61,066 bases of DNA from an uncultured Gammaproteobacteria bacterium (GTDB lineage Bacteria > Patescibacteriota > Patescibacteriia > UBA10025 > JAHIVO01). The notes under the pieces are model-generated. The model saw only the letters and a program-made list of their open reading frames with translations. It had not been told where the DNA came from and searched no databases. A program made the translations under genes and the position numbers. The stretch covers positions 1-61,066 of the forward strand of contig CAZQBL010000017.1 in the NCBI GenBank assembly GCA_964592105.1, written 5' to 3'. Shown here one piece after another: positions 674 through 56,067 of this stretch (its first letter is position 1; each line of letters starts with the position of its first letter).

Positions 674-1825
674 ATGAGTGAACGAAAAAGATTGTTTACC
701 TCGGAATCAGTGACCGAGGGGCATCCAGATAAAATCTGCGACCAGATTTCGGATGCGGTTTATGACGAAATGCTAAAGCAGGACAAGAATTGCCATTCAG
801 CCGTGGAATGTTTTGTCACTACCGGCTTGGTGATCATCGGCGGCGAGGTCAAAACTACCTGCTATGTTGATATCCAGGATATTGTCCGTCGGACACTAAA
901 ACGCATCGGCTATGATAAGCCGGAGTACGGTTTTTGTTACAAGGACGTGGGTGTTATTTCCGTAATTCATGAGCAGTCATCTGACATTGCCCAGGGTGTC
1001 GATGGCACTGGGGAACGCAAAGAGCTGGGTGCCGGCGACCAGGGCTTGATGTTCGGTTATGCCTGTGATGAAACACCGGAATACATGCCTTTAACCATTT
1101 CCTTGGCTCATCGGTTGACTAGAAGGCTGGCTGAAGTTAGGAAGAAAGGCCAACTCCCTTATTTGCGGCCAGACGGTAAATCGCAAGTAACAGTGGAATA
1201 TGTAGATGACAAGCCGCACCGGATTGACACAGTGGTTATTGCCGCGCATCATTCAGAGGGCGTTGCCATGGATAAGCTTCGCGCGGACATTAAAGAGTAT
1301 GTCATCAAGCCGGTCTTGGGTGATTGGTATAATGATAAGATTAAATTTTTTATCAATGCTACCGGGCGTTTTGTCATCGGTGGGCCTCCTGGTGATACCG
1401 GCTTAACCGGCAGAAAAATAATCGTGGATACTTATGGCGGCGTGGGTGCTCATGGTGGTGGTTGCTTTTCCGGGAAAGACGTAACAAAAGTTGACCGTAG
1501 TGCTTCATACGCCGCGCGTTACATCACTAAAAATATCGTGGCGGCGGGCTTGGCAAAAAAATGCGAAATTCAGCTGGCCTATGCCATCGGCGTGGCCGAG
1601 CCGGTTTCAATCATGGTTAATACATTTGGCACTGGTACGCTGGAAAATGGCGATATTGAAGAGCTAGTCAAGAAGAACTTCCCGCTCAAGCCGGCGGACA
1701 TCATTGAGCAGCTGAATTTGCGGCAGCCCATTTATGAAAAGACCGCTGCCTATGGCCATTTTGGCCGGACGGACGTGGAGTTCCCCTGGGAAAAATTGGA
1801 TAAAGTGGAGGTATTGAAGAAGTAA
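674..1825 (+). CDS. metK: S-adenosylmethionine synthetase
   Basis: [36 protein letters not shown] motifs. Confidence 0.99.
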
Positions 1826-21403: not shown

Positions 21404-22566
21404 GGTTGTTTGATTATTGGTTTATTTTTTTCTTTAATATAATAGCCCACAGCGCCTAAAAACCAGACGATAGTAAGCAGACTGACGAACATACCGACAA
21501 AACGCAGATTGGAGATGATGAAAAGAATGATGGTGCCGAGGATCATTGCCCAAATTAGCGGTGGTTCTTTGGTCTGATTGTTTTTTTTTCCGCCCAGATG
21601 TTCCAGCAGCCAGAGGCCCAGTGCCGTTCCAGTAATGGTTAACTGGATATACAAGAGTATGACGAAAAGAGCGGTGGCGATCAGAGCCAGAGGTATGCCG
21701 ATGACGGTAATTGACAGAAGAATTATGATTACTGGCACGATTATCAGATATACACTTCCCCAAAGGATAACATGTCCGGGTTCTTCTGACATTCTGGCCG
21801 TGAGTTTTTTTGTAGTATTTTTGAAAACGCTTACCAGAAAGGTACCGACTAATAAAAGTCCGAAAAGACGGATAAGTCGGAAATAAATCCATGAGGATGA
21901 CAGGAATTTGGCTGAGCGTGTAAATTCTTTCGGGAGTTCTTTCCGCAGGGTTTGACCAAAGATCTTGGCGCCGTTATGCAAGGCGGCCTCACGACTGCCA
22001 GTATAGGTGAAATTGCCGTTTATTTTGGTTTTGGGCATGAGAGTGGCCAGCCCATTTTGTCCGAGTTGCAGTGTAGCATTAGTGCCTACGGTATTATTTA
22101 GCGTTATGACATGACCGAAGCCATAGATACTGCCGGCCACCGGCGCCTGGATTGAAATATTCATAGCGGCAAAAGAAAGGCTCCAACCGACACTGGCTTT
22201 GTCTGAAAGCGTGGCGGTCTGCGCGGCGATGTTCACGTTTTTGCCCACGGTATTGCTGAGATCTACAACCGAACCGATAACCCGGACATTGCCGGCGACC
22301 GGGCCGTTGATTATTATGGTTTGGCCGGCGGCCAAAACGTCTCCAGATATCGCGCCATTGATGGTGATGGTATTGCCTAGGGCGATAACATCACCCTTTA
22401 CATCCCCGTCAATAACTACTTGATAGGCATAACGCACGAAGTTGTCATTGACTGTTTCGCCCTTGGGTACCATACCCGTTTCCAGGTAATCAGTGTTGGC
22501 ATATGCAAGCAGCGGTCCACCTAAAGAAATCCCCATAATCGCTAAAAAAACTAACCCTTTTTTCAT
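21400..22566 (-). CDS. membrane protein with N-terminal bactofilin-like (polymer-forming) beta-helix repeats
   Basis: Signal peptide, repeated I.G.V.GDV.A.G..I.I.G units, about five C-terminal TM helices. Confidence 0.8.
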   Translation of the reverse strand: MKKGLVFLAIMGISLGGPLLAYANTDYLETGMVPKGETVNDNFVRYAYQVVIDGDVKGDVIALGNTITINGAISGDVLAAGQTIIINGPVAGNVRVIGSVVDLSNTVGKNVNIAAQTATLSDKASVGWSLSFAAMNISIQAPVAGSIYGFGHVITLNNTVGTNATLQLGQNGLATLMPKTKINGNFTYTGSREAALHNGAKIFGQTLRKELPKEFTRSAKFLSSSWIYFRLIRLFGLLLVGTFLVSVFKNTTKKLTARMSEEPGHVILWGSVYLIIVPVIIILLSITVIGIPLALIATALFVILLYIQLTITGTALGLWLLEHLGGKKNNQTKEPPLIWAMILGTIILFIISNLRFVGMFVSLLTIVWFLGAVGYYIKEKNKPIIKQP

Positions 22567-22618
22567 AATGCTAGAGTTAATGATATTGACTATAATTTAG
22601 CATTTTTGCAGATTTTTT

Positions 22619-23338
22619 TCAAGATTTACGAGCAATAGTGATTAGGTTGAATCCCGAGTACCAGTGGGCCAGTTGACCCTTAATCGTGTAATATTGTTTT
22701 TCCACTGTAAAGCCATTTTGTGCCAGTAATGTTCGTAATTCTCCAGGCCAAAATCCGTGGATATAGCGTTTATCGACTATGCGTCCCTGTCCATCTTTCC
22801 AGAGCTTCCAGAGGCTGCCAAAATCAATGGGGATTTGCTTAAAGATTTTTTTCAGTAAAATGCGGATATGAGCTGACCACCAGCGGGGAGTCCACAGGTT
22901 CCAATTTAATAAAATGAGGTACCCGTCTTTTTTGCAGACTCGTCGCATCTCCGTCAAAGCTTGTCGGCGTAATGTTTGGCCGGCTAGATGATGCAGGGTA
23001 GCTATGCAGAATATGATATTGAACTTTTCCTCCGGAAAAGGTAAGGTAGTGATATCGCTGAAGATAAATGTACGATCAGGATACTGTTTTTTAGCGATAG
23101 CAATTAAGGCCTTGCTAAAATCAATTCCAGTATAGCTAATTTTTTTATCCCTTAGCACGTCCAGTAGCCGGCCATTACCACACCCGGCGTCCAAAAGTGC
23201 ATCGCCATCATTGACGTATGACACGATATCACGGAATTCAGACCAGGGTAGGGAACGGGTAGAAGAAAATTGTTCGGCGATAGTGTCATAGGTTCGGCGA
23301 TTTGCCTCATTAAATTTTTTCGCTGTTTCATCTTTCAT
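22619..23338 (-). CDS. class I SAM methyltransferase, Trm9/ALKBH8-like
   Basis: YDTIAEQFSSTR..PW, LDAGCGNGR, IFCIATLHHL, RRQAL.EMRRV.K.DG...L.NW, RYIH.F...EL, which parallel the Trm9 motifs. Confidence 0.8.
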   Translation of the reverse strand: MKDETAKKFNEANRRTYDTIAEQFSSTRSLPWSEFRDIVSYVNDGDALLDAGCGNGRLLDVLRDKKISYTGIDFSKALIAIAKKQYPDRTFIFSDITTLPFPEEKFNIIFCIATLHHLAGQTLRRQALTEMRRVCKKDGYLILLNWNLWTPRWWSAHIRILLKKIFKQIPIDFGSLWKLWKDGQGRIVDKRYIHGFWPGELRTLLAQNGFTVEKQYYTIKGQLAHWYSGFNLITIARKS

Positions 23339-24946
23339 ATGCCTGATTTAATTTCAAAAAAATATATTCAGGATCTGGTAAAAGCGCGTCCCGAAACTGC
23401 TGAAGATTTGCGGCAAATTAAACGCATTCTAGCAACCAAGTATAAAGTTACAATCATTACCAACGCCCTCATCTTAAAGAAATATCGACAGTATTTCAAG
23501 GGCAGATTAGACGATCGTTTACTACGTTTACTGCGTAAGCGGGAGATTCGCACGCTGTCCGGTGTAGCTCCGGTGACAGTGCTGACTAAGCCGTATCCCT
23601 GCCCGGGACGGTGCGTTTATTGCCCGACGGAGGCACGTATGCCTAAAAGTTATATTGCCACCGAACCGGCAGCCCAGCGGGCGTTTTTACTGAAGTTTGA
23701 TCCGTATAAGCAGGTTAAGGCGCGCATTGAGACTTTGGAAGCCAATGGTCACAGTGCCGATAAAATTGAATTGATTGTTCTTGGCGGCACCTGGTCTTAT
23801 TATAAAAAAAAATACCAGACCTGGTTTATCAAAAGATGCTTTGAGGCAGCGAATGACCGGAAATCGAGGACATTGGTCCAAGCACAGAAGATTAATGAAA
23901 CGGCTAAGCATCGGATTATTGGTTTAACCCTGGAAACACGGCCGGACTATGTGACTGTGGACGAATTATGGCGGATGCGGGAGCTCGGCTGCACTCATGT
24001 ACAGATTGGAGTGCAAACCCTTGACCATGAGATTCTGGATTTGACCAAGCGTGACGATTCCATTATCAATGTCGGCCGGGCAACGATGCTGCTGCGGGAT
24101 TTTGGTTTTAAACTGACCTATCACCTCATGCCCGGATTACCGGGAGCGACGCCGCAAAAAGATTTAGCAACCTTTAAAAAAGTTTTTTCCGACCCGCGAT
24201 TTCAGCCTGATATGCTGAAAATCTACCCCTGCGTGGTGGTCAAGACCGCTTTACTGTACCAGTGGTATAAAGACGGCAGATATAAACCCTACGACGATAA
24301 AACACTGACTGATTTATTGATCAAAATCAAAAAATATATTCCGCCATATGTGAGGATTAATCGTTTGATTCGAGATATTTCTGGCGATGAAATTGTGGCC
24401 GGCAATATGATTACTAATCTGCGCCAACTGTTGCATGAGCGCGGTATAGTCTGTCATTGTATCCGTTGCCGGGAAGCACGTAAAGCGATTATTAAAGAAA
24501 ACGAAACGAAATTGGTGATGCGTGCTTACCGGGCTGGACGGGGCACAGAGCATTTTATCAGTTTTGAAAGCAAGGATAAAAAGAAATTGTATGCCTTTGT
24601 CCGCCTGCGTTTGCCGGACCGGAAAAAACGGAAATTGAGCACCATGAAAGTAATTCGGTTTTTTGATAAACAAGAAATCACCATGACTGGCAATGAGATG
24701 GCTTTTGATATTGATACGGCCTTGATCCGAGAATTGCATACCTATGGCGAATTGATTCCGGTGGGCTCAAAGAAAACGGCGGTACAACATGCTGGATTGG
24801 GAAAGAGATTGTTATTGGCAGCTGAGGATATTGCGCGAAAAAAAGGGTATAAAAAAATGGCGATAATTTCCGGGGTTGGAGTGAGGGAATATTATAAAAA
24901 ATTGGGCTACAGTTTGGAACGGAGCTATATGGTAAAGAGAATATAA
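23339..24946 (+). CDS. elp3: Elp3 family tRNA uridine(34) acetyltransferase (radical SAM + KAT)
   Basis: RTLSGVAPV, CPGRCVYC, GGTW, ETRPD, QIGVQ, HLMPGLPG, KIYP, RELHTYG, QHAGLG..LL..AE, ISGVGVREYY; ATG 23339. Confidence 0.95.
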   Translation: MPDLISKKYIQDLVKARPETAEDLRQIKRILATKYKVTIITNALILKKYRQYFKGRLDDRLLRLLRKREIRTLSGVAPVTVLTKPYPCPGRCVYCPTEARMPKSYIATEPAAQRAFLLKFDPYKQVKARIETLEANGHSADKIELIVLGGTWSYYKKKYQTWFIKRCFEAANDRKSRTLVQAQKINETAKHRIIGLTLETRPDYVTVDELWRMRELGCTHVQIGVQTLDHEILDLTKRDDSIINVGRATMLLRDFGFKLTYHLMPGLPGATPQKDLATFKKVFSDPRFQPDMLKIYPCVVVKTALLYQWYKDGRYKPYDDKTLTDLLIKIKKYIPPYVRINRLIRDISGDEIVAGNMITNLRQLLHERGIVCHCIRCREARKAIIKENETKLVMRAYRAGRGTEHFISFESKDKKKLYAFVRLRLPDRKKRKLSTMKVIRFFDKQEITMTGNEMAFDIDTALIRELHTYGELIPVGSKKTAVQHAGLGKRLLLAAEDIARKKGYKKMAIISGVGVREYYKKLGYSLERSYMVKRI

Positions 24947-25210
24947 TGAGAAAAGTTTTGTTTCTTATAAGTTTTACAATAAAATACGCTACTCCGTTAT
25001 AAAGCATAGATAGAAACGAACACAAGAATAGACAAATAGAATTCAAAAACAATGCCTTGAAAAGTAAATGCTTCATGCTTCGGGGAATTAAATGATGTGT
25101 TGTATGAATTATTCAAGAAAATAACAAAATCAGGTAAAAGATGCAAAATAGTTTTATTAATTAAAAAACCGTGAATAAAATTCATTAATGGTTTTTTTGT
25201 TCGGGCGCGA

Positions 25211-25758
25211 TCAGTCACAATTATTGTTGGCGTTTTTCCACTGTTTTTCGTGCCAAATGCGGAATTCAATCGGTTTCAGGCCATTTTCGATTTTCACATG
25301 GCCTTTGAAATCATCGTGGTATTTGGATTTTTTGACCTCAATGTTGGCTTCAAAAAAGTTGTCGCAAAAAACAGTTGGTAGGACAAACTTGGCATTGTCG
25401 GCATGGTCGGTTTTTCCCCAGCGTGTATAGTTGGACAGGCAGGTCCCCATGAGAGTTCTTCGCTAAACTTGTCTCTGACGTAGAAGGTTACACGGATTTT
25501 GGCATCCTTAACCGGCTGATTGAGAGCGTCATGGATGGTGACAAAGAAAGCGGTTTTGTCCGGCATTGATTCTGGATAGTCGTACTTCACTTCCGGACGC
25601 TTGTGTTCGCCCTGGCGTCTTTTCTGTTTGGACGTGAGGTTAGATTTTTCCTGAAAGTTATTTGATTGATAGTAGTTTTGGTTCGAACCTTCGCGGGTCA
25701 GGCAAGAAAAAGCCAGGCCGGCAACTATGATTCATAGAATAGAAAAACGTTTGAACAT
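25211..25758 (-). pseudogene. degenerate lipoprotein gene
   Basis: SD AAGGAAGAGGG, then MFKRFSIL*IIVAGLAFSC (TGA at codon 9, 25732-25734; lipobox); frameshift in the G-run near 25447-25450 joins ORFs 25294-25590 and 25211-25450. Confidence 0.7.
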
Positions 25759-26104
25759 CCCTCTTCCTTGATAATAGTTGATAAAAGGTTCAGAAAAGTT
25801 CAGTTCATTGTGTATTATTTAATAATATTGTCAACTCAACTCTCTATATAGTTAATTTTGTGGGCCGGGACGAGTCTTCAAATTATATATGATTAAAGAT
25901 TTTCTGTGATGCTTGCACTTGACAAGAATACATAATTGGTATAAAAGCATAAGTAGAGACAAAAATTGAATCATTAAATAAAAAAAGGAAAAAGGAGGAA
26001 AAAGGACTTTGAAAATTGGATTCTTGAAGATTTTTAGGTTTTTTGCTGTGCGTTAAGGAAGTAAGGAAGGAAGAAATGAAGAAAATAAAGGAAAGAGGTG
26101 ACAC

Positions 26105-28423
26105 ATGAAAAAGATTACATTATTAATGTTTGTAGGGCTGTTCATGTTGATCGGGTATATAGGCATAGCGGAGGCATTGGTTTTTACAAACAGTTGCCTT
26201 TGGACGGACATTTGGGACGTCGATGTAAGCGGGGACTACGCTTATTGCATCGGACCCTATGGTTTGCAGGTGTTGAATATTTCGAATCCTGCTTTCCCAA
26301 CGCTGGTGGCAAGGCTAATGTTGCAACAAACGCCTTTGCGGGTTGGTGGTTATAACTACCTGGTAGCCACTTTTGGTATAGATGTTGAAGGCACTAAAGC
26401 CTATGTGGCAAATTGGGACGGGAACGGTCATGGTACTTTACATATTATTGACGTTAGCGATCCTTCTCATCCCCAATTATTGTCTAGCCTTAAGCGCAAT
26501 CATTATGCCAGTGATATAAAAGTTGCTGGCGGGTATGCGTATGTGGCCCAGACATACAGCGGTTTGATGGTCTATAATGTCAGCAACCCTAGTTCGCCGG
26601 TAGTGGCGGGGAGTTACCCAACTCTTTATGCTCAAGGTGTAGCACTGACCGGAGAATATGCTTACGTAGCCGATGGCAGTACTGGACTGAAAATAATAAA
26701 CATTTCAAATCCCACCCAGCCGACACTAATTGGCAATTGTGATACACCGGATGAAGCCATCAAGGTTTGTGTCCAGGGTAATTTTGCCTATGTGGCCGAT
26801 AACCGTTCGGATGGACAAAGGGCCGGCTTACAGATAATTGACATTTCCATACCAACCGCGCCTGTTATAGTCGGTAGTTTAGACACAAGATTTAATGCTG
26901 TTGATGTAGCAGTATCGGGCAATTATTGTTATGTAGTGGATATATATGACAATCTTTTGATTGTTGATGTTACTAATCCTACGGCCCCGCGTCTAATTAC
27001 CACGTTTGATGAAGTCCCTAATGTTTCCTGCAGCATAGTGCTTTCGAGTAGCCATGCTTTTGTGGCGGGTGCCATGGGAGGCGGTTTGCAGATTATCAAT
27101 GTCACCAACCCGAGCATACCGTCTCTTGTTGGTTACTACGAAACTCCGGGCCAGATTAAAAGTGTGGCTTTTAAAGGACATTATGCTTATGTGACCGATG
27201 GTTTTCAAGGAGGATTAAGGATAGTGGATGTGGTAAATCCTTATCGTCCAGTTGAGGTAGGTGCTGTCAAAACGCCGGACCAAGCCAATGATATAGCGAT
27301 CTTCGGGCATTATGCTTTTATCGCTGACAGGTATTCTGGCGTACAGATTGTGGATATTAATGATTCTGAACATCCCTTGATTGTTAGTAGTGTGTTGATT
27401 CCTGGTAGCCAGTCTTGGGCATTTGGAGTGGCCGTTTTGGGTGATTATCTCTATGTCGGCGCAACTTCGAGAGGTTTACAGGTTATTAATATCTCAAATC
27501 CTCTAGAACCAACTTTGGCTGGTTATATAGAAACTCCTGGATTAGCGGGGCGTTTGGCGGTCAAGGATAGTTTGGCGTTCGTTACTTATTGGGGGGCACA
27601 GAAGGGACTATCGATAATTGATATAACAAATCCTTACGCCCCGACACTGGTTAATAACTATCCGACGTCCAGCGGTGCCTATGAAGTAGCCGTGGATGGT
27701 AATTATGTCTATTTAGGAGGTGATGATTTCGGCCTATTAATCCTTGATGTTTCAAGTCCCGCCTCACCGATTCTAGTAGGAACATACAACAACAATCAGC
27801 AGGATATTTGGGGTATAAAAGTGCAAGGAGATTCTCTTTTCATCTCGGATATTAGTAAAGGCCTGACAATTCTGGGTATAGCAGATCGCTCATCTCCTGT
27901 ACTGCTAGACACTATTAGCACCCGTGGCCAGGCATTTGATGTCGCCGTTGGTGGTAACTTTGTGTACGTGGCTGATTTATATGGGATGTCAATTTTTTCC
28001 TTTTGTCTAGACACTGATGGTGATGGAGTGTGCGATTCATTTGACAACTGTCCAATTACTTACAATCCCAATCAGTCTGATATAAACGGCAACGGCATCG
28101 GTGATGCCTGCGAATTGTACGCTTACCTGCCTGGCGACGCCAATATGTACGTGGGTATGTGGCCACCCGCAGTCACTAGTGCTGACGTTACGTACCTAGT
28201 AGGTTATTTCCGTGGTCTCAACTATCCGTGTCTCTTGGATACATTCTTCTGTACTGCCGACATTAATGGAGATTGTCATGTAAATGGCGCTGACGTTACT
28301 AGGCTGGTGAGATATTTCAAAGGATTAAACGGGATAACCCCATGTCCTAATTATCCATCGGCTTGGCCACCTTTGCCGGATGAAGCTCCGGCTGGTTGGC
28401 CTGATTGTGAAACTTCTCGTTAG
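26105..28423 (+). CDS. secreted LVIVD-repeat (beta-propeller) protein with thrombospondin type-3 repeats and C-terminal dockerin-like domain
   Basis: Signal peptide; about 14 repeats of V.V.G.YAYVAD...GL.IIDISNP..P..VG; DTDGDGVCDSFDNCP..NP.QSD.NGNGIGDAC; duplicated GDAN..ADVTYLVGYF / ADINGDCHVNGADVTRLVRYF. Confidence 0.9.
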   Translation: MKKITLLMFVGLFMLIGYIGIAEALVFTNSCLWTDIWDVDVSGDYAYCIGPYGLQVLNISNPAFPTLVARLMLQQTPLRVGGYNYLVATFGIDVEGTKAYVANWDGNGHGTLHIIDVSDPSHPQLLSSLKRNHYASDIKVAGGYAYVAQTYSGLMVYNVSNPSSPVVAGSYPTLYAQGVALTGEYAYVADGSTGLKIINISNPTQPTLIGNCDTPDEAIKVCVQGNFAYVADNRSDGQRAGLQIIDISIPTAPVIVGSLDTRFNAVDVAVSGNYCYVVDIYDNLLIVDVTNPTAPRLITTFDEVPNVSCSIVLSSSHAFVAGAMGGGLQIINVTNPSIPSLVGYYETPGQIKSVAFKGHYAYVTDGFQGGLRIVDVVNPYRPVEVGAVKTPDQANDIAIFGHYAFIADRYSGVQIVDINDSEHPLIVSSVLIPGSQSWAFGVAVLGDYLYVGATSRGLQVINISNPLEPTLAGYIETPGLAGRLAVKDSLAFVTYWGAQKGLSIIDITNPYAPTLVNNYPTSSGAYEVAVDGNYVYLGGDDFGLLILDVSSPASPILVGTYNNNQQDIWGIKVQGDSLFISDISKGLTILGIADRSSPVLLDTISTRGQAFDVAVGGNFVYVADLYGMSIFSFCLDTDGDGVCDSFDNCPITYNPNQSDINGNGIGDACELYAYLPGDANMYVGMWPPAVTSADVTYLVGYFRGLNYPCLLDTFFCTADINGDCHVNGADVTRLVRYFKGLNGITPCPNYPSAWPPLPDEAPAGWPDCETSR

Positions 28424-28780: not shown

Positions 28781-30070
28781 ATGAAAATACTAAAACAACA
28801 AGACAAGGCCTTATACGAGGCTATGCTAAATGAACTAAAGCGACAGCAAGATGGTCTAGAGATGATTCCCTCAGAAAACTATGTTTCCGAAGCTGTTTTG
28901 GAGACACTCGGATCAGTTTTAACCAATAAGTATTCTGAAGGTTACCCGGGTAAGCGCTACTACGGAGGTAACCAATTTATTGATGTGGTGGAGAATCTGG
29001 CTTGCGAGCGGGCCAAGAAACTGTTTGGGGTGGAACACGCCAATGTCCAACCCTACTCTGGTTCCCCAGCCAATCAGGCAGTTTATTACGCTTTATTGGA
29101 GCCGGGGGATAAGGTCATGGGTTTGAGTTTGCCTCATGGCGGGCACCTAACACACGGCTGGAAGGTCAGTTTTTCCGGCCGGTATTATCATTCTGTGCCA
29201 TATGGCGTAGACAAAGAGACTCATCTAATTAATTATGACGAGGTCTTAGAAGTGGCTAAAAAAGAGAAACCGAAGCTGATCATTGCCGGGGCTACCGCCT
29301 ATCCGCGAGAGTTTGATTTTAAGGCTTTCGGTCAAATCGCTCACGAAGTCGGAGCTTACTTATTGACTGATATTGCCCATATCGCTGGTCTTATAATCGC
29401 TGGAGTACATCAGTCTCCGGTTGATTTTGCCGATGTAATTACAACAACGACCCATAAAACACTGCGGGGTCCCAGAGGCGCCATGATTTTGTGTCCTAAA
29501 AACGTCGACCGGCTCAAAGAGAAATATCATCCTGATACCAAATGGAATTTGTCTGAATTAATAGACCGAGCAGTGTTTCCGGGTTTGCAGGGCGGTCCGC
29601 ACAATCATCAGACTGCGGCTATTGCCGTGGCTCTGAAAGAGGCCTCCACTTCGGAATTCAAGCATTACGGTGAGCAGATAGTAAAAAACGCTAAAGCCCT
29701 GGCTAGTAAGCTTTTAGAGTACGGCTTCAGTTTAGTTACCGGCGGCACTGATAATCATTTGGTTTTGATTGATTTGACCAACAAGAACATCACTGGACAG
29801 GAAGCGGAAACAGTATTGGATGAAGTTGGCATAACGGTGAACAAGAATACGATTCCGTTTGATCCGCGTAAGCCGATGGATCCGTCAGGCATTCGCCTGG
29901 GCACCCCAGCTTTGACTACGCGGGGGTTCAAGGAGGAAGATATGGCCGTGGTGGCGGACCTGATCGCAAAAACGATTCATAACTTTAAGAAAGAATTGGT
30001 CAAGGAAGAAGTGAAGAAGAAGGTGAAAGAGTTGACCCGGAAACGCCCTATTTATACGGGGCTGATGTAA
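28781..30070 (+). CDS. glyA: serine hydroxymethyltransferase
   Basis: [46 protein letters not shown]. Confidence 0.99.
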
Positions 30071-30092
30071 ATAATTAAGGGAAGCGTTGTTT

Positions 30093-30304
30093 GTCATTGT
30101 GAGCTCAAGTGAAGCAATCTCTAAACTTTCATTTTTTTGTTACATTTTTGTTTCACCGCTTTTCTTGGTGGCAAGAAAAGCGGTGAGAAAATAATCGCCC
30201 CCATCTTTCTTTGTCATTCTAAGGAGTGCAGCGACGTGAGAATCTCATTACTCTTGGTAAGGGGATTGCCACGTCGCTCACATGCGTTCGTCCCTTGCAA
30301 TGAC
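30093..30304. repeat. cluster of REP-like palindromes
   Basis: GTCATTGTGAG..GAAGCAATCT half-unit; 14-bp perfect stem 30153-30186; GTCATT..GCGACGTG.GAATCTC..GATTGCCACGTCGC..GCAATGAC full unit 30213-30304. Confidence 0.7.
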
Positions 30305-30474
30305 AGGAGGGGCTTTATTAATAAAAAAACTGCCCCGAATGGTCGCGCACAGGTGACAGATAACGAGGTAAAATCTTTTTCATCTTTCATGCGGAGTGGT
30401 TCTTGAGAAGAAACTTTCAGTGTAATCTGAATGTCGGCAGCATTTTTGTAACTTGCTGTCGAGCCTCGGGTTGT

Positions 30475-30784
30475 TCACAGGCCCGGTTCCTGCAATTCAT
30501 TCTTCAGATCAGATGCGGAAGCGTTGAACAATTGAAGGATTCTCTTGAGAGTTGTTGGCCGCGCGATTGTCGAGCCGAGTAGATTTATAGTCCTCCGACA
30601 CCGTTCGTCCTGACAGTCAACTGAAAATAGTATGTACGCTCTGTTACCGGACAGGATGAACAACCGAGCGACACCGGAGGCGACTTCCCAGTCGTGCATC
30701 TCTGTGGAGTAACTCTGGGAGTCCGAGGGCAGCACCATATTCGGACACGCCAGCCTTCAGAGTGGGCCATTTTCGTTTGGCCAT
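30475..30784 (-). pseudogene. possible frameshifted hypothetical gene
   Basis: SD AAGGAGGA and ATG 30784 give a 46-aa ORF (stop 30644) overlapping an 87-aa ORF (30475-30738) in the +1 frame. Confidence 0.35.
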
Positions 30785-30851
30785 CAAATCCTCCTTTTTA
30801 TTTTCAGTAGATACTTATCAGTAGGTAATAGAGTATGATATCATACATTAT

Positions 30852-31700
30852 ATGAACAGCCAAGCCAAATTAATTAATGGCACAAAAATCGCCCAGGCGA
30901 TCAGGCAGGAATTAAAAGCGAAAGTCGCCCGATTAGCTGACAAGCCCGGGCTAGCTATTATTTTAGTCGGCAATGATGCGGGGTCGCACACATACGTAAA
31001 TCTTAAAGAAAAAGCCGCGGAAGAAGCGGGCATTCATTTTGAAAAAGACTATTATCCAGCGACAGTTAGTCAGGACATCATTTTGAAAAAAATAGCCGAA
31101 TTAAATAGCCGAAAAGATATTCACGGAATTTTGGTGCAGTTCCCCCTGCCTAAAGGTTTTGACGAAAACAAAATCGTAGCCGCCATTGATCCCGTCAAAG
31201 ACGTAGATGGTTTTCATCCGGATAATGTGCGATTACTGTTGGATAAAAAACCGCGTCTGATCCCCGGTTTGGCTTTGGGTATTATGCGTCTGATTGTTAG
31301 TACTGGCATAAATTTGTCGGGCCGGCAGGCAGCAATCCTGGCCAAGAGTGAAGTTTTTGCCAATCCTCTTAAACAATTGCTGGAGCAGAAAGGAGTCAGG
31401 GCGGTTTTTGTGACTCCGAGTTCAACAGATTTTATTGAGCGTTTAACACAGGCTGACGTCGTGGTGGTGGCAATCGGCCAGCCGCGTTTTTTAAAAGATA
31501 ATATGATTAAAGAAGGCGTAGTGGTCGTTGACGTCGGATATAACCGAGTGAACGATAAAGCTGTCGGAGACGTTGATTTTGAATCGGTCAGTCAGAAAGC
31601 GGGTTGGATTACGCCTGTGCCTGGCGGAGTGGGACCGATGACCGTGGCTATGCTTTTATCCAATGTTTTATTGGCTTATGATCTTCAAAAAGAGTCTTGA
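30852..31700 (+). CDS. folD: bifunctional methylenetetrahydrofolate dehydrogenase/cyclohydrolase
   Basis: YVNLK.KA, HGILVQFPLP, KDVDGFHP, VVDVG, TPVPGGVGPMTVAML. Confidence 0.97.
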   Translation: MNSQAKLINGTKIAQAIRQELKAKVARLADKPGLAIILVGNDAGSHTYVNLKEKAAEEAGIHFEKDYYPATVSQDIILKKIAELNSRKDIHGILVQFPLPKGFDENKIVAAIDPVKDVDGFHPDNVRLLLDKKPRLIPGLALGIMRLIVSTGINLSGRQAAILAKSEVFANPLKQLLEQKGVRAVFVTPSSTDFIERLTQADVVVVAIGQPRFLKDNMIKEGVVVVDVGYNRVNDKAVGDVDFESVSQKAGWITPVPGGVGPMTVAMLLSNVLLAYDLQKES

Positions 31701-33087: not shown

Positions 33088-33813
33088 TTAGTTCGAGGTG
33101 CCCAAGAGGGCTAGGGTACAGGCGGCCACGGCCGCTGTTTCTGCTCGCAAAATCCGGTTGCCCAAGCTGACAATAATCACACTGTTTTTTTTAGCTGATC
33201 TGACTTCGTTTTCTGAAAATCCTCCTTCAGGGCCGATAAAAATGTGATACACATCAGTTGATTTGTTTAAGGTTTGAGCCAGAGGATTCGACCGGCTGTT
33301 TTCCCAAGCTAGGAGTTTTTGCCCGGGAGTGTTTTTGATTTGTTGCAAAGCTTCGGAAAACGATGCGGTTGGCAATAATTCGGCCGGCCGCAGTCCGCCG
33401 CACTGCTCCAGGCTTTCCGTGATGATTTTATGGTAGCGCTTTAGTTTGTTTTTTGATATTTCCCTGACTACGCAATTGTCGCTGATGATCGGCACGAAGG
33501 CAGACACTCCCAGCTCCATGCCTTTTTGCAAAATCCACTCAAATTTGTCGCTTTTGAGAAGTGATTGGTAGAGGATTACTTTTTTATGTGGTTCTCGGGA
33601 CGAAGTGCGGATTTCTAATATTGTTGTTTTGGCGGTTTCTTTTGTTATTTCTTTTAATATCACCTCATACTCGTATTGATTTGAGAAGACAATAAAGACG
33701 TCGTTTTTCTTCAGGCGAAGAGCGTCGGTAAGCTGATGGATTATTTCACGGTCAGTAATGGAAATGGTTCCTCCAGTCGGGATTATTTGGGATAAATAAA
33801 AACGGGGAAGCAT
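33088..33813 (-). CDS. rsmE: 16S rRNA m3U1498 methyltransferase
   Basis: KSDKFEWILQKGMELGV, EQCG, IFIGPEGGFS, LGNRILRAETA. Confidence 0.96.
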   Translation of the reverse strand: MLPRFYLSQIIPTGGTISITDREIIHQLTDALRLKKNDVFIVFSNQYEYEVILKEITKETAKTTILEIRTSSREPHKKVILYQSLLKSDKFEWILQKGMELGVSAFVPIISDNCVVREISKNKLKRYHKIITESLEQCGGLRPAELLPTASFSEALQQIKNTPGQKLLAWENSRSNPLAQTLNKSTDVYHIFIGPEGGFSENEVRSAKKNSVIIVSLGNRILRAETAAVAACTLALLGTSN

Positions 33814-35402: not shown

Positions 35403-35430
35403 TAAAGCCGGTATTTGATTACCGGCTTTT
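35403..35430. terminator. bidirectional terminator
   Basis: AAAGCCGGTA/TACCGGCTTT stem at the convergence of the ychF unit and the methylase gene. Confidence 0.7.
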
Positions 35431-36663
35431 ATATTGAAAAACGAAAATTTCTCTTTCAACTTTTTGATCCGGACGGGAATAAATAAGCGAGCCGCGGGCG
35501 GTGGGTCCGATTTTAGCGAATAAGGAAATATTTTCCGGGAAAGGATTAATCCGGCTAAACCCCATTTTTTCCAGCCGTTCCAGAATTTTTAGCGCAAAAA
35601 TGCCATGGACAGTTTTAAATAGAGGAAAAACAAAAACCAGACGTCCGCCAGGCTTGATGATGCGCGCCAGCGTCTTGAAGGCAGCCAGATACAGTGTTTC
35701 CAGTTCCTGAACCAGACTAAGCATGTTGATAATACTGATATTTTTGCTAATGGTTGGCCCAAGAAATGGTTCGGTAACGACCAGATCGACAGATTGTTTT
35801 TCAAGCAAGGTATCCAGACTGCTGACATCAGCCGTGAAGACACGAGTTGGATTTTTGCTTATTTGTCTGTTTTTTTGAAGCCAATTCAGATTGGCGATAG
35901 TGTCTGCCACGGCTTTCTGACTGATATCGCTGCCAATGACGGTGTCAATATTCATCAGAAGCGCTTCCTGTAAAATTGTACCTGAGCCGCAAAAGGGGTC
36001 TAGTATAGTCAGGCCGGGTTTGGCTCCGCCCAGATTCAACATTATTTTTGCCAGTTTAGGCGGCAACATACCGGAACGGCTGTCACGCCTGGGTCGGCCG
36101 TAGTCCCGGCCGGAATAATCCTCGAAATCCTGGACAGCCACTGTCAGTCCCAGGTAAATGTCGGACAGTCCGCAGACCACAAGTATTTCCGCACCCTGGG
36201 TCAGTAGTTTGTTTTTTATCACTTGGACGCTGGACAACGCGTCGTCTTTGGCTACGATAAAGCGACTTTTTAGCCCGCTGCGTTGCCACTCTTTTTTTAA
36301 ATGCAGTCCTAGGCTGTTGAATTTTTTGCGCTCGTGCCGGACTAAATCGCCGTACAAACTGAAACCAAAAACGATCTTTCCCTCGGATTTTCGGCCAATT
36401 TCATCCTTTAAAGAAGGCGTAGTCAGAGATTGAATGAGCTCGCTCTGGCTTTTGTATGAATTGAATATTTTGCCGATTTTCACGCAGCCACCCAGTGCTT
36501 TCTGCCAGCTCACCGCGTCAATTTCCTGGTCAGTTTTGACAATCAGGGCTTGGCTGGTCAGGTCAATGGTTTTTAAATCAGTGGACACAGTGACCTGACG
36601 ATTGAATATCTCCGCCAGAGATAAAAGGGGTGTTCTGCCTAAAATAAAGCAATATTTAGCCAT
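35419..36663 (-). CDS. Trm11/TrmG10-like RNA amino-methyltransferase
   Basis: GMLPPKLAKIMLNL, ILDPFCGSGTIL.EA, GSDIS, VTEPFLG (N6/N2-MTase motif IV-like); start at ATG 36663. Confidence 0.8.
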   Translation of the reverse strand: MAKYCFILGRTPLLSLAEIFNRQVTVSTDLKTIDLTSQALIVKTDQEIDAVSWQKALGGCVKIGKIFNSYKSQSELIQSLTTPSLKDEIGRKSEGKIVFGFSLYGDLVRHERKKFNSLGLHLKKEWQRSGLKSRFIVAKDDALSSVQVIKNKLLTQGAEILVVCGLSDIYLGLTVAVQDFEDYSGRDYGRPRRDSRSGMLPPKLAKIMLNLGGAKPGLTILDPFCGSGTILQEALLMNIDTVIGSDISQKAVADTIANLNWLQKNRQISKNPTRVFTADVSSLDTLLEKQSVDLVVTEPFLGPTISKNISIINMLSLVQELETLYLAAFKTLARIIKPGGRLVFVFPLFKTVHGIFALKILERLEKMGFSRINPFPENISLFAKIGPTARGSLIYSRPDQKVEREIFVFQYKSR

Positions 36664-36938
36664 GCTCTTATTATATACTAAATGTAAATTTTCAGCTAAA
36701 AGTTGCATTGTTTTTTGGCTTATGATAAAATCTATTCGAATAAATATTTGACCTAAATATAGGCATATTTTTTCCGCTTTCGCCGAATTATTCACTACGA
36801 TGCCAAGGACAATTATTTTTTGCATGATAGAAAGTGGTGGATACCTACCGAAGCAACGGCGAAGGTGGGTTGGGGCGTCGGTGGTTTTCGCTGAGGCATC
36901 AATCAAAAAGAATTACATTTAATTAGAGCTCAATTCGT

Positions 36939-54352: not shown

Positions 54353-54411
54353 CCGTCGCGAATCTTATTTTCACGAATTTCGCGAATTAAAATTGCGCAA
54401 TAAATTATTAA

Positions 54412-56067
<1,656 letters not shown>

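Follow-up and report, generated by a model that had tools for sequence, protein, structure and literature searches.

In eukaryotes, mcm5U34 and mcm5s2U34 are formed by Elongator, with Elp3, and by Trm9-Trm112 (ALKBH8-TRMT112 in animals), and both catalytic proteins of this pathway are represented in the gene pair described here. In archaea, Elp3 stands alone without the other Elongator subunits, possesses Zn-binding cysteines and is encoded in a cluster with Trm9, as is the case for the pair. Such a cluster of Elp3 and Trm9 genes in Sulfolobus solfataricus is credited to Grosjean (2008) in passages of PMC6144793 and PMC5372719. Haloferax volcanii contains (m)cm5U and an active Trm9-Trm112, HVO_1032-Trm112 (PMC6144793, PMC5372719). 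Archaeal Trm9 acts together with Trm112 (PMC6144793). The present pair comes from a bacterial host. The formation of cm5U34 has been demonstrated only for the archaeal MinElp3 and eukaryotic Elongator (PMC7663514).

Among bacteria, field reviews limit Elp3 to Dehalococcoides, and the sole structurally studied bacterial Elp3 is DmcElp3 from Dehalococcoides mccartyi (PDB 5L7J, 6IA6). According to PMC5372719, no bacterial counterparts of the methyltransferases that depend on Trm112, among them Trm9, are detectable, and PMC7663514 sees no evidence of bacterial xcm5U derivatives. The bacterial MnmE/MnmG pathway, which with MnmC or MnmM yields xm5U34, acts on the same target as Elp3 and Trm9, the C5 side chain on U34 of split-codon-box tRNAs (PMC7663514). 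However, its enzymes, cofactors (GTP, FAD, methylene-THF and glycine) and product (cmnm5U/mnm5U) are unrelated to those of the Elp3/Trm9 pathway. In Gram-negative bacteria, the class I methyltransferase CmoM (SmtA) converts cmo5U to mcmo5U by esterifying the carboxyl of the U34 side chain. The pathway upstream of CmoM consists of CmoA/CmoB, unlike the Elp3 partner of the enzyme considered below.

Organization of the locus

The window, which is the whole stretch of 61,066 nt that was analysed, contains a complete Elp3 gene and a Trm9-like methyltransferase gene arranged head to head, so that the two are transcribed divergently (Table 1). The source of the pair is a hot-spring Patescibacteria genome. 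The first-pass annotation had given the coordinates of both genes exactly and was silent on their orientation. The start codons abut with no base between them. This arrangement occurs in 13 of the 34 species-level loci that could be evaluated, and in several others the genes are 2-5 nt apart. The ORF lister had proposed a longer form of Elp3 beginning at a TTG at 23270. This start was rejected because it would create a 69-nt overlap with the methyltransferase gene and because the alignments with homologues begin at the ATG at 23339.

A scan of positions 22300-26200 for sigma-70 promoters and terminators returned counts at or below the shuffled expectation. Two promoter-like sites lie within the 5' end of the Elp3 gene and face the methyltransferase gene, and neither is significant. 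An Rfam search of the window found only a tRNA-Leu. No RNA evidence for transcription starts at the junction was found, as the only sequencing runs containing the sequence were three of hot-spring metagenome DNA.

Table 1. Positions of the Elp3 and Trm9-like methyltransferase genes and of their principal motifs in the window.
Feature	Coordinates	Strand	Description
Trm9-like class I SAM methyltransferase gene	22619..23338	-	239 aa; predicted to form the methyl ester (cm5U34 to mcm5U34)
GFNLITIA	22631..22654	-	Residues 229-236; N231 opens the last beta-strand; probable counterpart of ScTrm9 N271
W146, W180 and KRYIHGF	22751..22912	-	W146 (ScW145), W180 (ScW168), residues 190-196 with R191 (ScR241); from alignments
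IATLHH	22988..23005	-	Residues 112-117; H116/H117 correspond to ScTrm9 H115/H116
SAM-binding motif I LDAGCGNGR and acidic D73 in GIDFS	23114..23194	-	Residues 49-57; D73 corresponds to ScTrm9 D72; from sequence and alignment
N-terminal Trm9 signature YDTIAEQFSSTRSLPW	23243..23290	-	FSxTRxxPW-type; residues 17-32; Y17 corresponds to ScTrm9 Y18, R28 to ScTrm9 R29
Junction CAT/ATG	23336..23341	.	Start codons of the divergent genes abut, 0 intergenic bases; from sequence
Elp3 gene	23339..24946	+	535 aa; radical-SAM and KAT/GNAT domains; predicted tRNA U34 cm5U synthase
Elp3 basic N-terminal extension	23339..23536	+	Residues 1-66; 17 K/R versus 7 D/E
Radical-SAM [4Fe-4S] cysteine motif CPGRCVYC	23600..23623	+	CxxxCxxC; residues 88-95; aligns with DmcElp3 CPGKCIYC
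CHCIRC	24452..24469	+	Residues 372-377; three Zn-binding cysteines; aligns with DmcElp3 CRCIRC
KAT acetyl-CoA motif QHAGLGKRL	24785..24811	+	Q/RxxGxG type; residues 483-491; aligns with DmcElp3 QHRGLGRKL

The Elp3 protein

The window Elp3 matches the NCBIfam model TIGR01211 (ELP3) with 525.7 bits, the cutoff being 350, over positions 5-522 of the 522 in the model. Pfam recognizes the Radical_SAM, Radical_SAM_C and Acetyltransf_1 domains, the last at residues 482-524. Together with the motifs in Table 1, this full-length match bears out the earlier description of a complete Elp3 with a radical-SAM CxxxCxxC motif and a KAT domain. The best match in the PDB is DmcElp3 (5L7J, E 7e-121), and the archaeal and eukaryotic Elp3 chains in the PDB match with E values of 1e-120 to 1e-87. 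The cysteine motif that binds Zn is typical of bacterial and archaeal Elp3 (PMC6367351).

The proteins differ at the N-terminus, where DmcElp3 is without the basic extension of about 66 residues found in the window Elp3. Thus, the alignment with DmcElp3 begins at residue 67, whereas that with mouse and human Elp3 begins at residue 11. In archaeal and eukaryotic Elp3 the N-terminal extension is involved in tRNA binding (Lin et al., 2019, PMC6367351). Like the eukaryotic protein, therefore, the window Elp3 combines the radical-SAM domain, the KAT domain and a basic N-terminus, although no Elp1, Elp2 or Elp4-6 was seen.

Affinity of the methyltransferase to Trm9

General domain libraries say little about the methyltransferase. 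Pfam assigns it only to the generic Methyltransf_11, and Pfam and NCBIfam together gave only generic or below-cutoff matches; neither library seems to include a Trm9 model. Comparisons were made with fungal Trm9 references, namely a fungal Trm9 profile and the structure of Yarrowia Trm9. When a profile of the bacterial family was searched against the PDB, the top match was Yarrowia Trm9 (5CM2_Z, 89.3 bits, profile positions 25-219), in an alignment that spans both the N-terminal TR..PW and the C-terminal RYxH motifs, while the runner-up (67.8 bits) covers the Rossmann core only. In the opposite direction, the fungal Trm9 profile scores the window methyltransferase at 88.8 bits, and the best methyltransferase other than Trm9 in the whole PDB at 41.3 bits. 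Profile-profile alignment of the family with Trm9 by hhalign gave a probability of 99.95% and an E value of 5.3e-38 over 192 columns. Structural comparison does not discriminate. A Foldseek search of the PDB with the AF2 model of the window protein (pLDDT 91.7) matched numerous class I methyltransferases, with Trm9 in fifth place although its target-normalised TM-score, 0.83, is the highest; this search was counted neither for nor against the Trm9 assignment.

Judged from its sequence, the methyltransferase is Trm9-like and not a generic enzyme. The concern that it might group with unrelated methyltransferases was not substantiated, with the profile comparisons favouring Trm9 in both directions and the catalytic residues being kept. 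Automatic names given to members of the family include 'UbiE', and the JGI pipeline calls one of them TRM9.

These searches also bear on whether the enzyme could be CmoM-like, esterifying cmo5U (5-carboxymethoxyuridine) supplied by CmoA/CmoB rather than the product of Elp3. The chemistry would be the same, the methyl esterification of a carboxyl on the U34 side chain, and some members of the family have weak precomputed matches to PF08003, a CmoB-type model. However, Trm9 comes first among the 60 PDB profile matches listed and none of these is a chain named CmoM or SmtA, neither cmoA nor cmoB turned up in the window or the annotated flanks, and the partner gene encodes Elp3. A CmoM-like role is thus highly improbable.

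Active-site residues

Mutagenesis of yeast Trm9 has identified eight residues whose replacement inactivates the enzyme (PMC4678810), and six of these are conserved in the window methyltransferase. R29, D72, H116, W145, W168 and R241 (yeast numbering) are invariant or nearly so in the bacterial and fungal proteins. Of the remaining two, Y243 is not conserved and N271 only probably so. All of the methyltransferase motifs quoted in the first-pass annotation, YDTIAEQFSSTRSLPW, LDAGCGNGR, IATLHH and KRYIHGF, are present. In yeast Trm9, R29 binds the carboxylate, and the R29A substitution removes 95% of the activity (PMC4678810); its counterpart R28 is invariant in Patescibacteria, Dehalococcoidia and fungi. 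H116 is likewise essential in the yeast enzyme (PMC4678810).

The position of Y243, the tyrosine of the yeast RYYH motif, is occupied by I193 in the window protein. Across the family this position varies among I, L, V and Y, Y being the residue of the Dehalococcoidia proteins and of the type-2 proteins of Patescibacteria. In yeast, the Y243A mutant retains about 10% of activity. A type-2 subgroup carries I at the position of ScH115. N271 of yeast Trm9 functions in uracil recognition, and N231 is its probable counterpart in the bacterial protein. N231 occurs in every one of the 21 family members compared and lies in a strand predicted at residues 231-238 of the AF2 model, although HMMER and MAFFT leave it unaligned with N222 of YlTrm9.

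Differences from the eukaryotic enzyme extend to the surface that contacts Trm112. Of the contact positions of Trm9, the hydrophobic V59 and F78 give way to polar or charged residues in the bacterial proteins; F116 is retained, and D117 is either N or D. A crude regular expression for Trm112-like small ORFs (L..CPxC..L), applied to 1.7 Mb of loci, returned four unrelated matches and nothing consistent, and in this crude scan no Trm112 gene was linked to the pair, a difference from the eukaryotic pathway, as is the head-to-head pairing of the genes. Independence from Trm112 is only hinted at for the bacterial enzyme, and the altered contact positions V59 and F78 are what would suggest it.

Conservation of the gene pair

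The methyltransferase family is large: it counts no fewer than 539 species-level loci and, when clustered at 50% identity, 1,145 clusters (E <=1e-30). Linkage was evaluated in the 80 best species-level Patescibacteria genomes carrying the methyltransferase, using a flank of at most 10 kb per match; 74 of these loci were testable. In 57 of the 80, the Elp3 gene is no more than 6 kb from the methyltransferase gene. In 47 it is adjacent and divergent, as in the window; in two it lies 0.7-3.4 kb away, and in eight it belongs to a co-directional cluster and is located 4-6 kb upstream. Elp3 was absent from the fetched flank in 17 of the 74 testable loci. The linkage spans many classes of Patescibacteria. 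By comparison, the other genes neighbouring the pair in the window occur near the methyltransferase in 0-19 of the 80 loci, and the examined loci share no third gene that is conserved alongside the pair.

An independent search that started from DmcElp3 found a Trm9-like gene beside Elp3 in 49 of 61 testable Dehalococcoidia-type loci, including that of D. mccartyi itself, the source of the Elp3 in PDB 5L7J. There, the Trm9-like neighbour (L087:7283-7954) is divergent from Elp3, as in the window, although the spacer is about 45 nt rather than 0 nt. The Dehalococcoidia methyltransferases form a more distant branch, for which the Patescibacteria profile gives scores of 77-113 bits. The pairing occurs far more often than chance would allow. 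Moreover, it does not represent mere synteny among close relatives, and that reading was rejected because the other neighbours are not conserved and because the pair recurs in Dehalococcoidia. The linkage, whose lack of conservation would have spoken against the earlier proposal, holds in Patescibacteria and Dehalococcoidia, that is, in two phyla.

An alternative is that the methyltransferase has a target of another kind, for instance a small molecule, a protein or a different site in RNA, and that its place beside Elp3 reflects nothing more than common regulation or synteny handed down by descent. Consistent with this, the Pfam and NCBIfam assignments go no further than a generic class I methyltransferase, 'UbiE' is among the automatic names, and many methyltransferases are equally similar by Foldseek. 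On the other hand, the score with the Trm9-specific profile is twice the background across the PDB, the catalytic residues of Trm9 are kept, and the adjacency persists in two phyla while the flanking genes differ. An unrelated substrate is for these reasons quite unlikely.

A predicted two-step modification of U34

The preferred reading is that the divergent pair forms a two-step module for the tRNA wobble uridine in which Elp3 produces cm5U34 and the Trm9-like enzyme converts it to mcm5U34, a reading to which we assign a probability of roughly 0.7. The first-pass annotation had proposed a two-step wobble-uridine pathway of the archaeal/eukaryotic type, and homology, the catalytic residues and the conserved linkage lend support to it. 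The analysis shows both identities by homology, the conservation of the catalytic residues and the linkage in two phyla, and from these we infer the chemistry, the substrate tRNAs and the end product as follows. Elp3 would hold the tRNA through its basic N-terminus, and its [4Fe-4S] cluster would cleave SAM to give the 5'-deoxyadenosyl radical. The KAT domain would take the acetyl unit from acetyl-CoA, with the outcome being a carboxymethyl group on C5 of U34, or cm5U34. The Trm9-like methyltransferase would then use SAM to methyl-esterify the carboxyl of cm5U34, producing mcm5U34. In this second step, R28 and H117 may place the carboxylate, W146 may stack on the base and N231 may read the uracil. 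The mcm5U34 product may be further thiolated to mcm5s2U.

Several observations weigh against the mcm5U34 reading. Neither cm5U nor mcm5U has been reported from any bacterium, and DmcElp3 is only weakly active in vitro (PMC7663514). ScY243 is replaced by I193, and the counterpart of ScN271 is inferred and unaligned. In addition, Foldseek is non-discriminating, the Pfam and NCBIfam calls are generic, and Elp3 is missing from the flank in the 17 testable loci noted above. Nevertheless, an mcm5U34 pathway probably exists in bacteria.

It is also conceivable that both enzymes act on U34 and that the end product is something other than mcm5U. The ester could be transient, leading to ncm5U, mchm5U or a derivative specific to bacteria, or a different Elp3-derived side chain could be methylated. 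The order of the steps leading to mcm5U and ncm5U is itself under debate in yeast (PMC3110198). Both I193, in place of a tyrosine contacting the substrate region, and the I at the ScH115 position of the type-2 subgroup suggest an altered substrate geometry. However, R28, H117 and R191, which position the carboxylate, are invariant, and no additional gene travels with the pair. A product other than mcm5U is therefore considered unlikely.

The mcm5U34 reading may be carried further, to the proposal that a self-sufficient, Trm112-independent Trm9, encoded head to head with its Elp3, equips a large part of the Patescibacteria and Dehalococcoidia with a complete mcm5(s2)U34 pathway of the archaeal/eukaryotic type that replaces MnmEG, and that the abutting starts enforce joint expression. 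This wider proposal is tentative and rather doubtful. No mnmE, mnmG or mnmA gene was found within the 61-kb window, a result that says little for the whole genome.

Implications for bacterial Elp3

No paper describing the bacterial Elp3/Trm9-like pair was found in the literature, which agrees with the earlier remark that the gene pair is not known to have been characterised in bacteria, and a search for CPR/Patescibacteria together with Elp3, Trm9, MnmE or MnmG found nothing relevant. The pair is a new bacterial member of an already known pathway. It reveals a large bacterial Trm9-like family whose close linkage to Elp3 extends over two phyla, one of them containing the organism from which the reference structure of bacterial Elp3 was obtained and in which the linkage is likewise present. 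Because Elp3 has a Trm9-like partner, there is a direct prediction for the product of bacterial Elp3 in vivo, namely mcm5U34. For mechanistic studies, the pair also provides forms of both enzymes that are small, monomeric and possibly free of partners, with the Patescibacteria Elp3 retaining the tRNA-binding N-terminus that is missing in DmcElp3. More broadly, the finding bears on the exchange of wobble-uridine pathways between the domains of life and on what makes up a minimal translation apparatus in ultra-small bacteria.

The Elp3 and methyltransferase genes

The first-pass annotation had proposed that Elp3 and an adjoining Trm9-like methyltransferase form a candidate mcm5U34 tRNA-modification module. 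The interval it named holds exactly two genes, both confirmed, which encode Elp3 and a class I SAM methyltransferase. The Elp3 start was taken as 23339 because homologues align from this ATG and because, in many genomes, the homologous ATG abuts the methyltransferase start in frame; a longer Elp3 from a TTG at 23270, offered by the ORF lister, was dropped on the same alignment. The exact CAT/ATG junction recurs in 13 of 34 evaluable species, with spacers of 2-5 nt in several more (0-nt spacers, at the methyltransferase start: L007-L012, L014, L015, L018, L026, L030, L034, L056), and the flanking sequence is very AT-rich. With a 0-nt spacer, promoters and translation-initiation signals must therefore lie within the opening codons of the partner gene, unless leaderless mRNAs are made. 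As an anatomical feature, this head-to-head junction offers neither promoters nor ribosome-binding sites any space between the genes.

Features of the window and of related loci (positions in the window unless another locus or protein residues are indicated)
Feature	Position	Strand	Remarks
Methyltransferase gene	22619-23338	-	239 aa
Junction CAT/ATG	23336-23341	divergent genes	+ strand ...TTTCAT/ATGCCT...; abutting start codons, 0-nt spacer
Elp3 gene	23339-24946	+	535 aa
Radical-SAM cysteines	Elp3 residues 88-95		CPGRCVYC
Zn cysteines	Elp3 residues 372-377		CHCIRC, typical of bacterial and archaeal Elp3
Acetyl-CoA motif	Elp3 residues 483-491		QHAGLGKRL
Region downstream of Elp3	24947-26104		1.16 kb, G+C about 0.40, no convincing gene
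LVIVD-repeat gene	26105-28423		772 aa, ten repeats
SHMT (GlyA) and FolD	28781-31700		downstream of Elp3, beyond LVIVD-repeat gene
SAM synthetase MetK	674-1825	+	
RsmE-type RNA methyltransferase	33088-33813	-	
UPF0020/RlmKL-like methyltransferase	35419-36906	-	495 aa
ORF antisense to whole GroEL gene	54408-55847	-	479 aa, no family match
GroEL gene	54430-56067	+	
Co-directional cluster	L085:137-7123		also L048, L082, L081, L055, L033, L040, L073
Co-directional-cluster methyltransferase	L085:6001-6699		
D. mccartyi Trm9-like methyltransferase gene	L087:7283-7954	-	about 45 nt upstream of Elp3 (from L087:8001), divergent

Elp3 matches NCBIfam TIGR01211 end to end (525.7 bits; curated cutoff 350) and Pfam Radical_SAM, Radical_SAM_C and Acetyltransf_1. 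Its closest solved relatives are the bacterial Elp3 of Dehalococcoides mccartyi (DmcElp3, 5L7J; E 7e-121) and archaeal MinElp3 (E 4e-120), followed by mouse, human and yeast Elp3 (E 1e-90 to 1e-87). The window protein aligns with mammalian Elp3 from residue 11, whereas its alignment to DmcElp3 begins at residue 67, leaving unmatched a 66-residue N-terminus that contains 17 Lys/Arg. A basic N-terminus is required for tRNA binding by archaeal and eukaryotic Elp3, and the weak activity of DmcElp3 has been attributed to its short N-terminus (PMC6367351, PMC7663514).

Several other features of the window were recorded. Small ORFs in the region downstream of Elp3 have no Pfam match, and the stretch has no Rfam match or notable repeats. 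The LVIVD-repeat protein (beta-propeller type; Pfam 377.7 bits) probably sits at the cell surface; its C-terminal region, rich in Cys and Asp, is similar to calcium-binding or dockerin-like modules. The ORF antisense to GroEL is almost certainly a shadow ORF. The window also carries three RNA-modification or SAM-related genes, those for MetK and the RsmE-type and RlmKL-like enzymes.

Trm9 affinity of the methyltransferase

For the window methyltransferase the only Pfam match is the generic Methyltransf_11 domain, and all NCBIfam models stay below their cutoffs. In a single-sequence PDB search the best match was Yarrowia lipolytica Trm9 (YlTrm9; 5CM2 chain Z), merely level with an uncharacterised methyltransferase. 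A profile of 20 homologues (34-54% identity, nearly all 228-243 aa) placed Trm9 clearly at the top of the PDB (89.3 bits, E 1.9e-24, profile positions 25-219), in an alignment that takes in the N-terminal TR..PW and C-terminal RYxH motifs; the second chain reached 67.8 bits over the Rossmann core only. In the reverse test, YlTrm9 was rebuilt from the PDB alignment and used to collect fungal orthologues. An HMM from 25 of these gave 88.8 bits (E 5.9e-26) for the window protein and 50-124 bits (median 88.8) across the Patescibacteria family, as against at most 41.3 bits for every non-Trm9 chain when the profile of the same 25 sequences was run against the whole PDB. Profile-profile comparison of the two families gave a probability of 99.95% (E 5.3e-38, 192 columns), and the JGI pipeline had independently named one family member 'tRNA (uracil-5-)-methyltransferase TRM9'. 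The AF2 model is of high confidence (pLDDT 91.7), and Foldseek with this model is non-discriminating: Trm9 ranks fifth among dozens of class I methyltransferases of equal similarity.

Alanine at R29, D72, H116, W145, W168, R241, Y243 or N271 inactivates yeast Trm9 (Létoquart et al., 2015; PMC4678810). These positions were followed in an alignment of the window protein, two other Patescibacteria proteins, one 'type-2' protein (a Patescibacteria subgroup with I at the yeast H115 position), two Dehalococcoidia proteins and four fungal Trm9s. The equivalence of N231 to N271 is probable, though no alignment program places it so.

Yeast Trm9 residues and their counterparts in the window methyltransferase
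Yeast Trm9	Window	Conservation in the mixed alignment
Y18	Y17	conserved; proposed carboxylate contact
R29	R28	invariant
D72	D73	invariant
H116	H117	invariant
W145	W146	invariant
W168	W180	invariant
R241	R191	invariant
Y243	I193	not conserved in window; Y in type-2 and Dehalococcoidia proteins
N271	N231 (probable)	N231 invariant, first residue of last beta-strand

Linkage in Patescibacteria and Dehalococcoidia

Four homologues inspected on long contigs each have a divergent Elp3-type gene at a distance of 0-5 nt, and one of these loci has entirely different outer flanks. With each GTDB species represented by a single genome, a scan returned at least 539 loci encoding methyltransferase relatives, and linkage was counted in the best 80 (32-51% identity). 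These span many Patescibacteria classes, including Kerfeld-, Falkow-, Parcu-, Portnoy-, Magasanik-, Peregrini-, Gracili-, Berkel- and Gribaldobacteria and Minisyncoccia; family matches with E of 1e-30 or better fall into 1,145 clusters at 50% identity. Elp3 is near the methyltransferase in 57/80 loci: adjacent and divergent in 47, divergent at 0.7-3.4 kb in two, and 4-6 kb upstream in eight, within a co-directional cluster Elp3-SHMT-FolD-RecQ-methyltransferase-thioredoxin. Ten loci have the same RecQ-methyltransferase cluster and no Elp3 in the fetched flank, seven have neither Elp3 nor the shared cluster there, and six are too short to judge. As a synteny control, other neighbours of the window methyltransferase were counted in the 80 loci, and these recur in only 0-19: SHMT and FolD (19 each), a DUF8173 membrane protein (13), PGM (10), HAD (9), PlsX (4), RecA (3), and the LVIVD protein and NUDIX (0). 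The conserved linkage on which the earlier proposal depended is therefore present.

The co-directional cluster is thus a second arrangement conserved in other Patescibacteria, and the Elp3/SHMT/FolD neighbourhood recurs, since SHMT and FolD also follow Elp3 in the window. Its methyltransferases (matches ending near query residue 216) constitute a subgroup with a shorter C-terminus and Ile (I118) for yeast H115, and keep the RYYH tyrosine. Several MAGs in which the pair or cluster is of the Patescibacteria type bear the label Gammaproteobacteria, Pirellulales, Omnitrophota or Actinomycetota (L026, L028, L036, L049, L053, L058, L059, L062, L073, L074, L080, L081, L085); these look like mis-binning or mis-assignment rather than true occurrence outside Patescibacteria.

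Linkage was also found outside this phylum. DmcElp3, rebuilt from the PDB alignment, was used to scan metagenome contigs and returned 80 loci whose Elp3 is 63-100% identical to it; one is a 100% match and so D. mccartyi itself. With the Patescibacteria methyltransferase HMM, 49 of the 80 showed an ORF scoring 77-113 bits. In the 61 loci whose upstream flank measures 900 nt or more, the methyltransferase is divergent and adjacent in 40, nearby in nine and absent in 12, that is, beside Elp3 in 49/61. The D. mccartyi protein has the R, HH, W, W, RYY and N motifs, and the fungal Trm9 HMM gives Dehalococcoidia methyltransferases 54-82 bits, which still exceeds the PDB background of 41 bits. The pair thus covers two distant bacterial phyla, and the module reaches the organism that serves as reference for bacterial Elp3. 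In the searchable literature nothing was found on the methyltransferase gene beside D. mccartyi Elp3.

Proposed pathway and significance

Elp3 and Trm9 constitute the standard eukaryotic mcm5U route; cm5U formation in vitro is established for archaeal Elp3, both (m)cm5U and an active Trm9-Trm112 are known from Haloferax, and Sulfolobus clusters the two genes (PMC6144793, PMC5372719, PMC7663514). Following established family chemistry, Elp3 would add cm5 to U34 from SAM and acetyl-CoA, and the Trm9-like enzyme would convert cm5U34 to mcm5U34 by SAM-dependent methylation of the carboxyl. This product, the tRNAs that serve as substrates and any thiolation that follows are putative. The homology, catalytic residues and linkage demonstrated here support the core of the first-pass reading, a two-step Elp3/Trm9 pair, and identify it as a bacterial example of an already known pathway of two enzymes rather than a system of a new kind. 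Genes for mnmE, mnmG and mnmA are absent from the window (61 kb of a 106.5-kb hot-spring metagenome contig).

Trm112 buries V59, F78, V102, A110, P112 and F116 of YlTrm9. In the bacterial proteins the V59 position is A, N, K or R and the F78 position S, N or E, while F116 is retained and the D117 position is N or D. Exposed polar residues at two core contacts may fit a stand-alone enzyme, which is only a hint, and no small ORF resembling Trm112 turned up beside any of the pairs in a crude motif scan.

Published accounts place Elp3 in Dehalococcoides, with no xcm5U evidence there (PMC7663514), and in 'numerous bacteria' (PMC13315578), and report that bacterial homologues of the Trm112-partner methyltransferases could not be detected (PMC5372719). 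In the searchable literature we found no report tying Elp3 or Trm9 to Patescibacteria/CPR and no description of a bacterial Trm9 partner, although the 2016 DmcElp3 paper may mention one. The interest of the pair lies in the breadth of the family, in its place beside the structurally characterised DmcElp3 and, if the hint holds, in the probable absence of a Trm112 partner. It also opens direct and cheap experiments.
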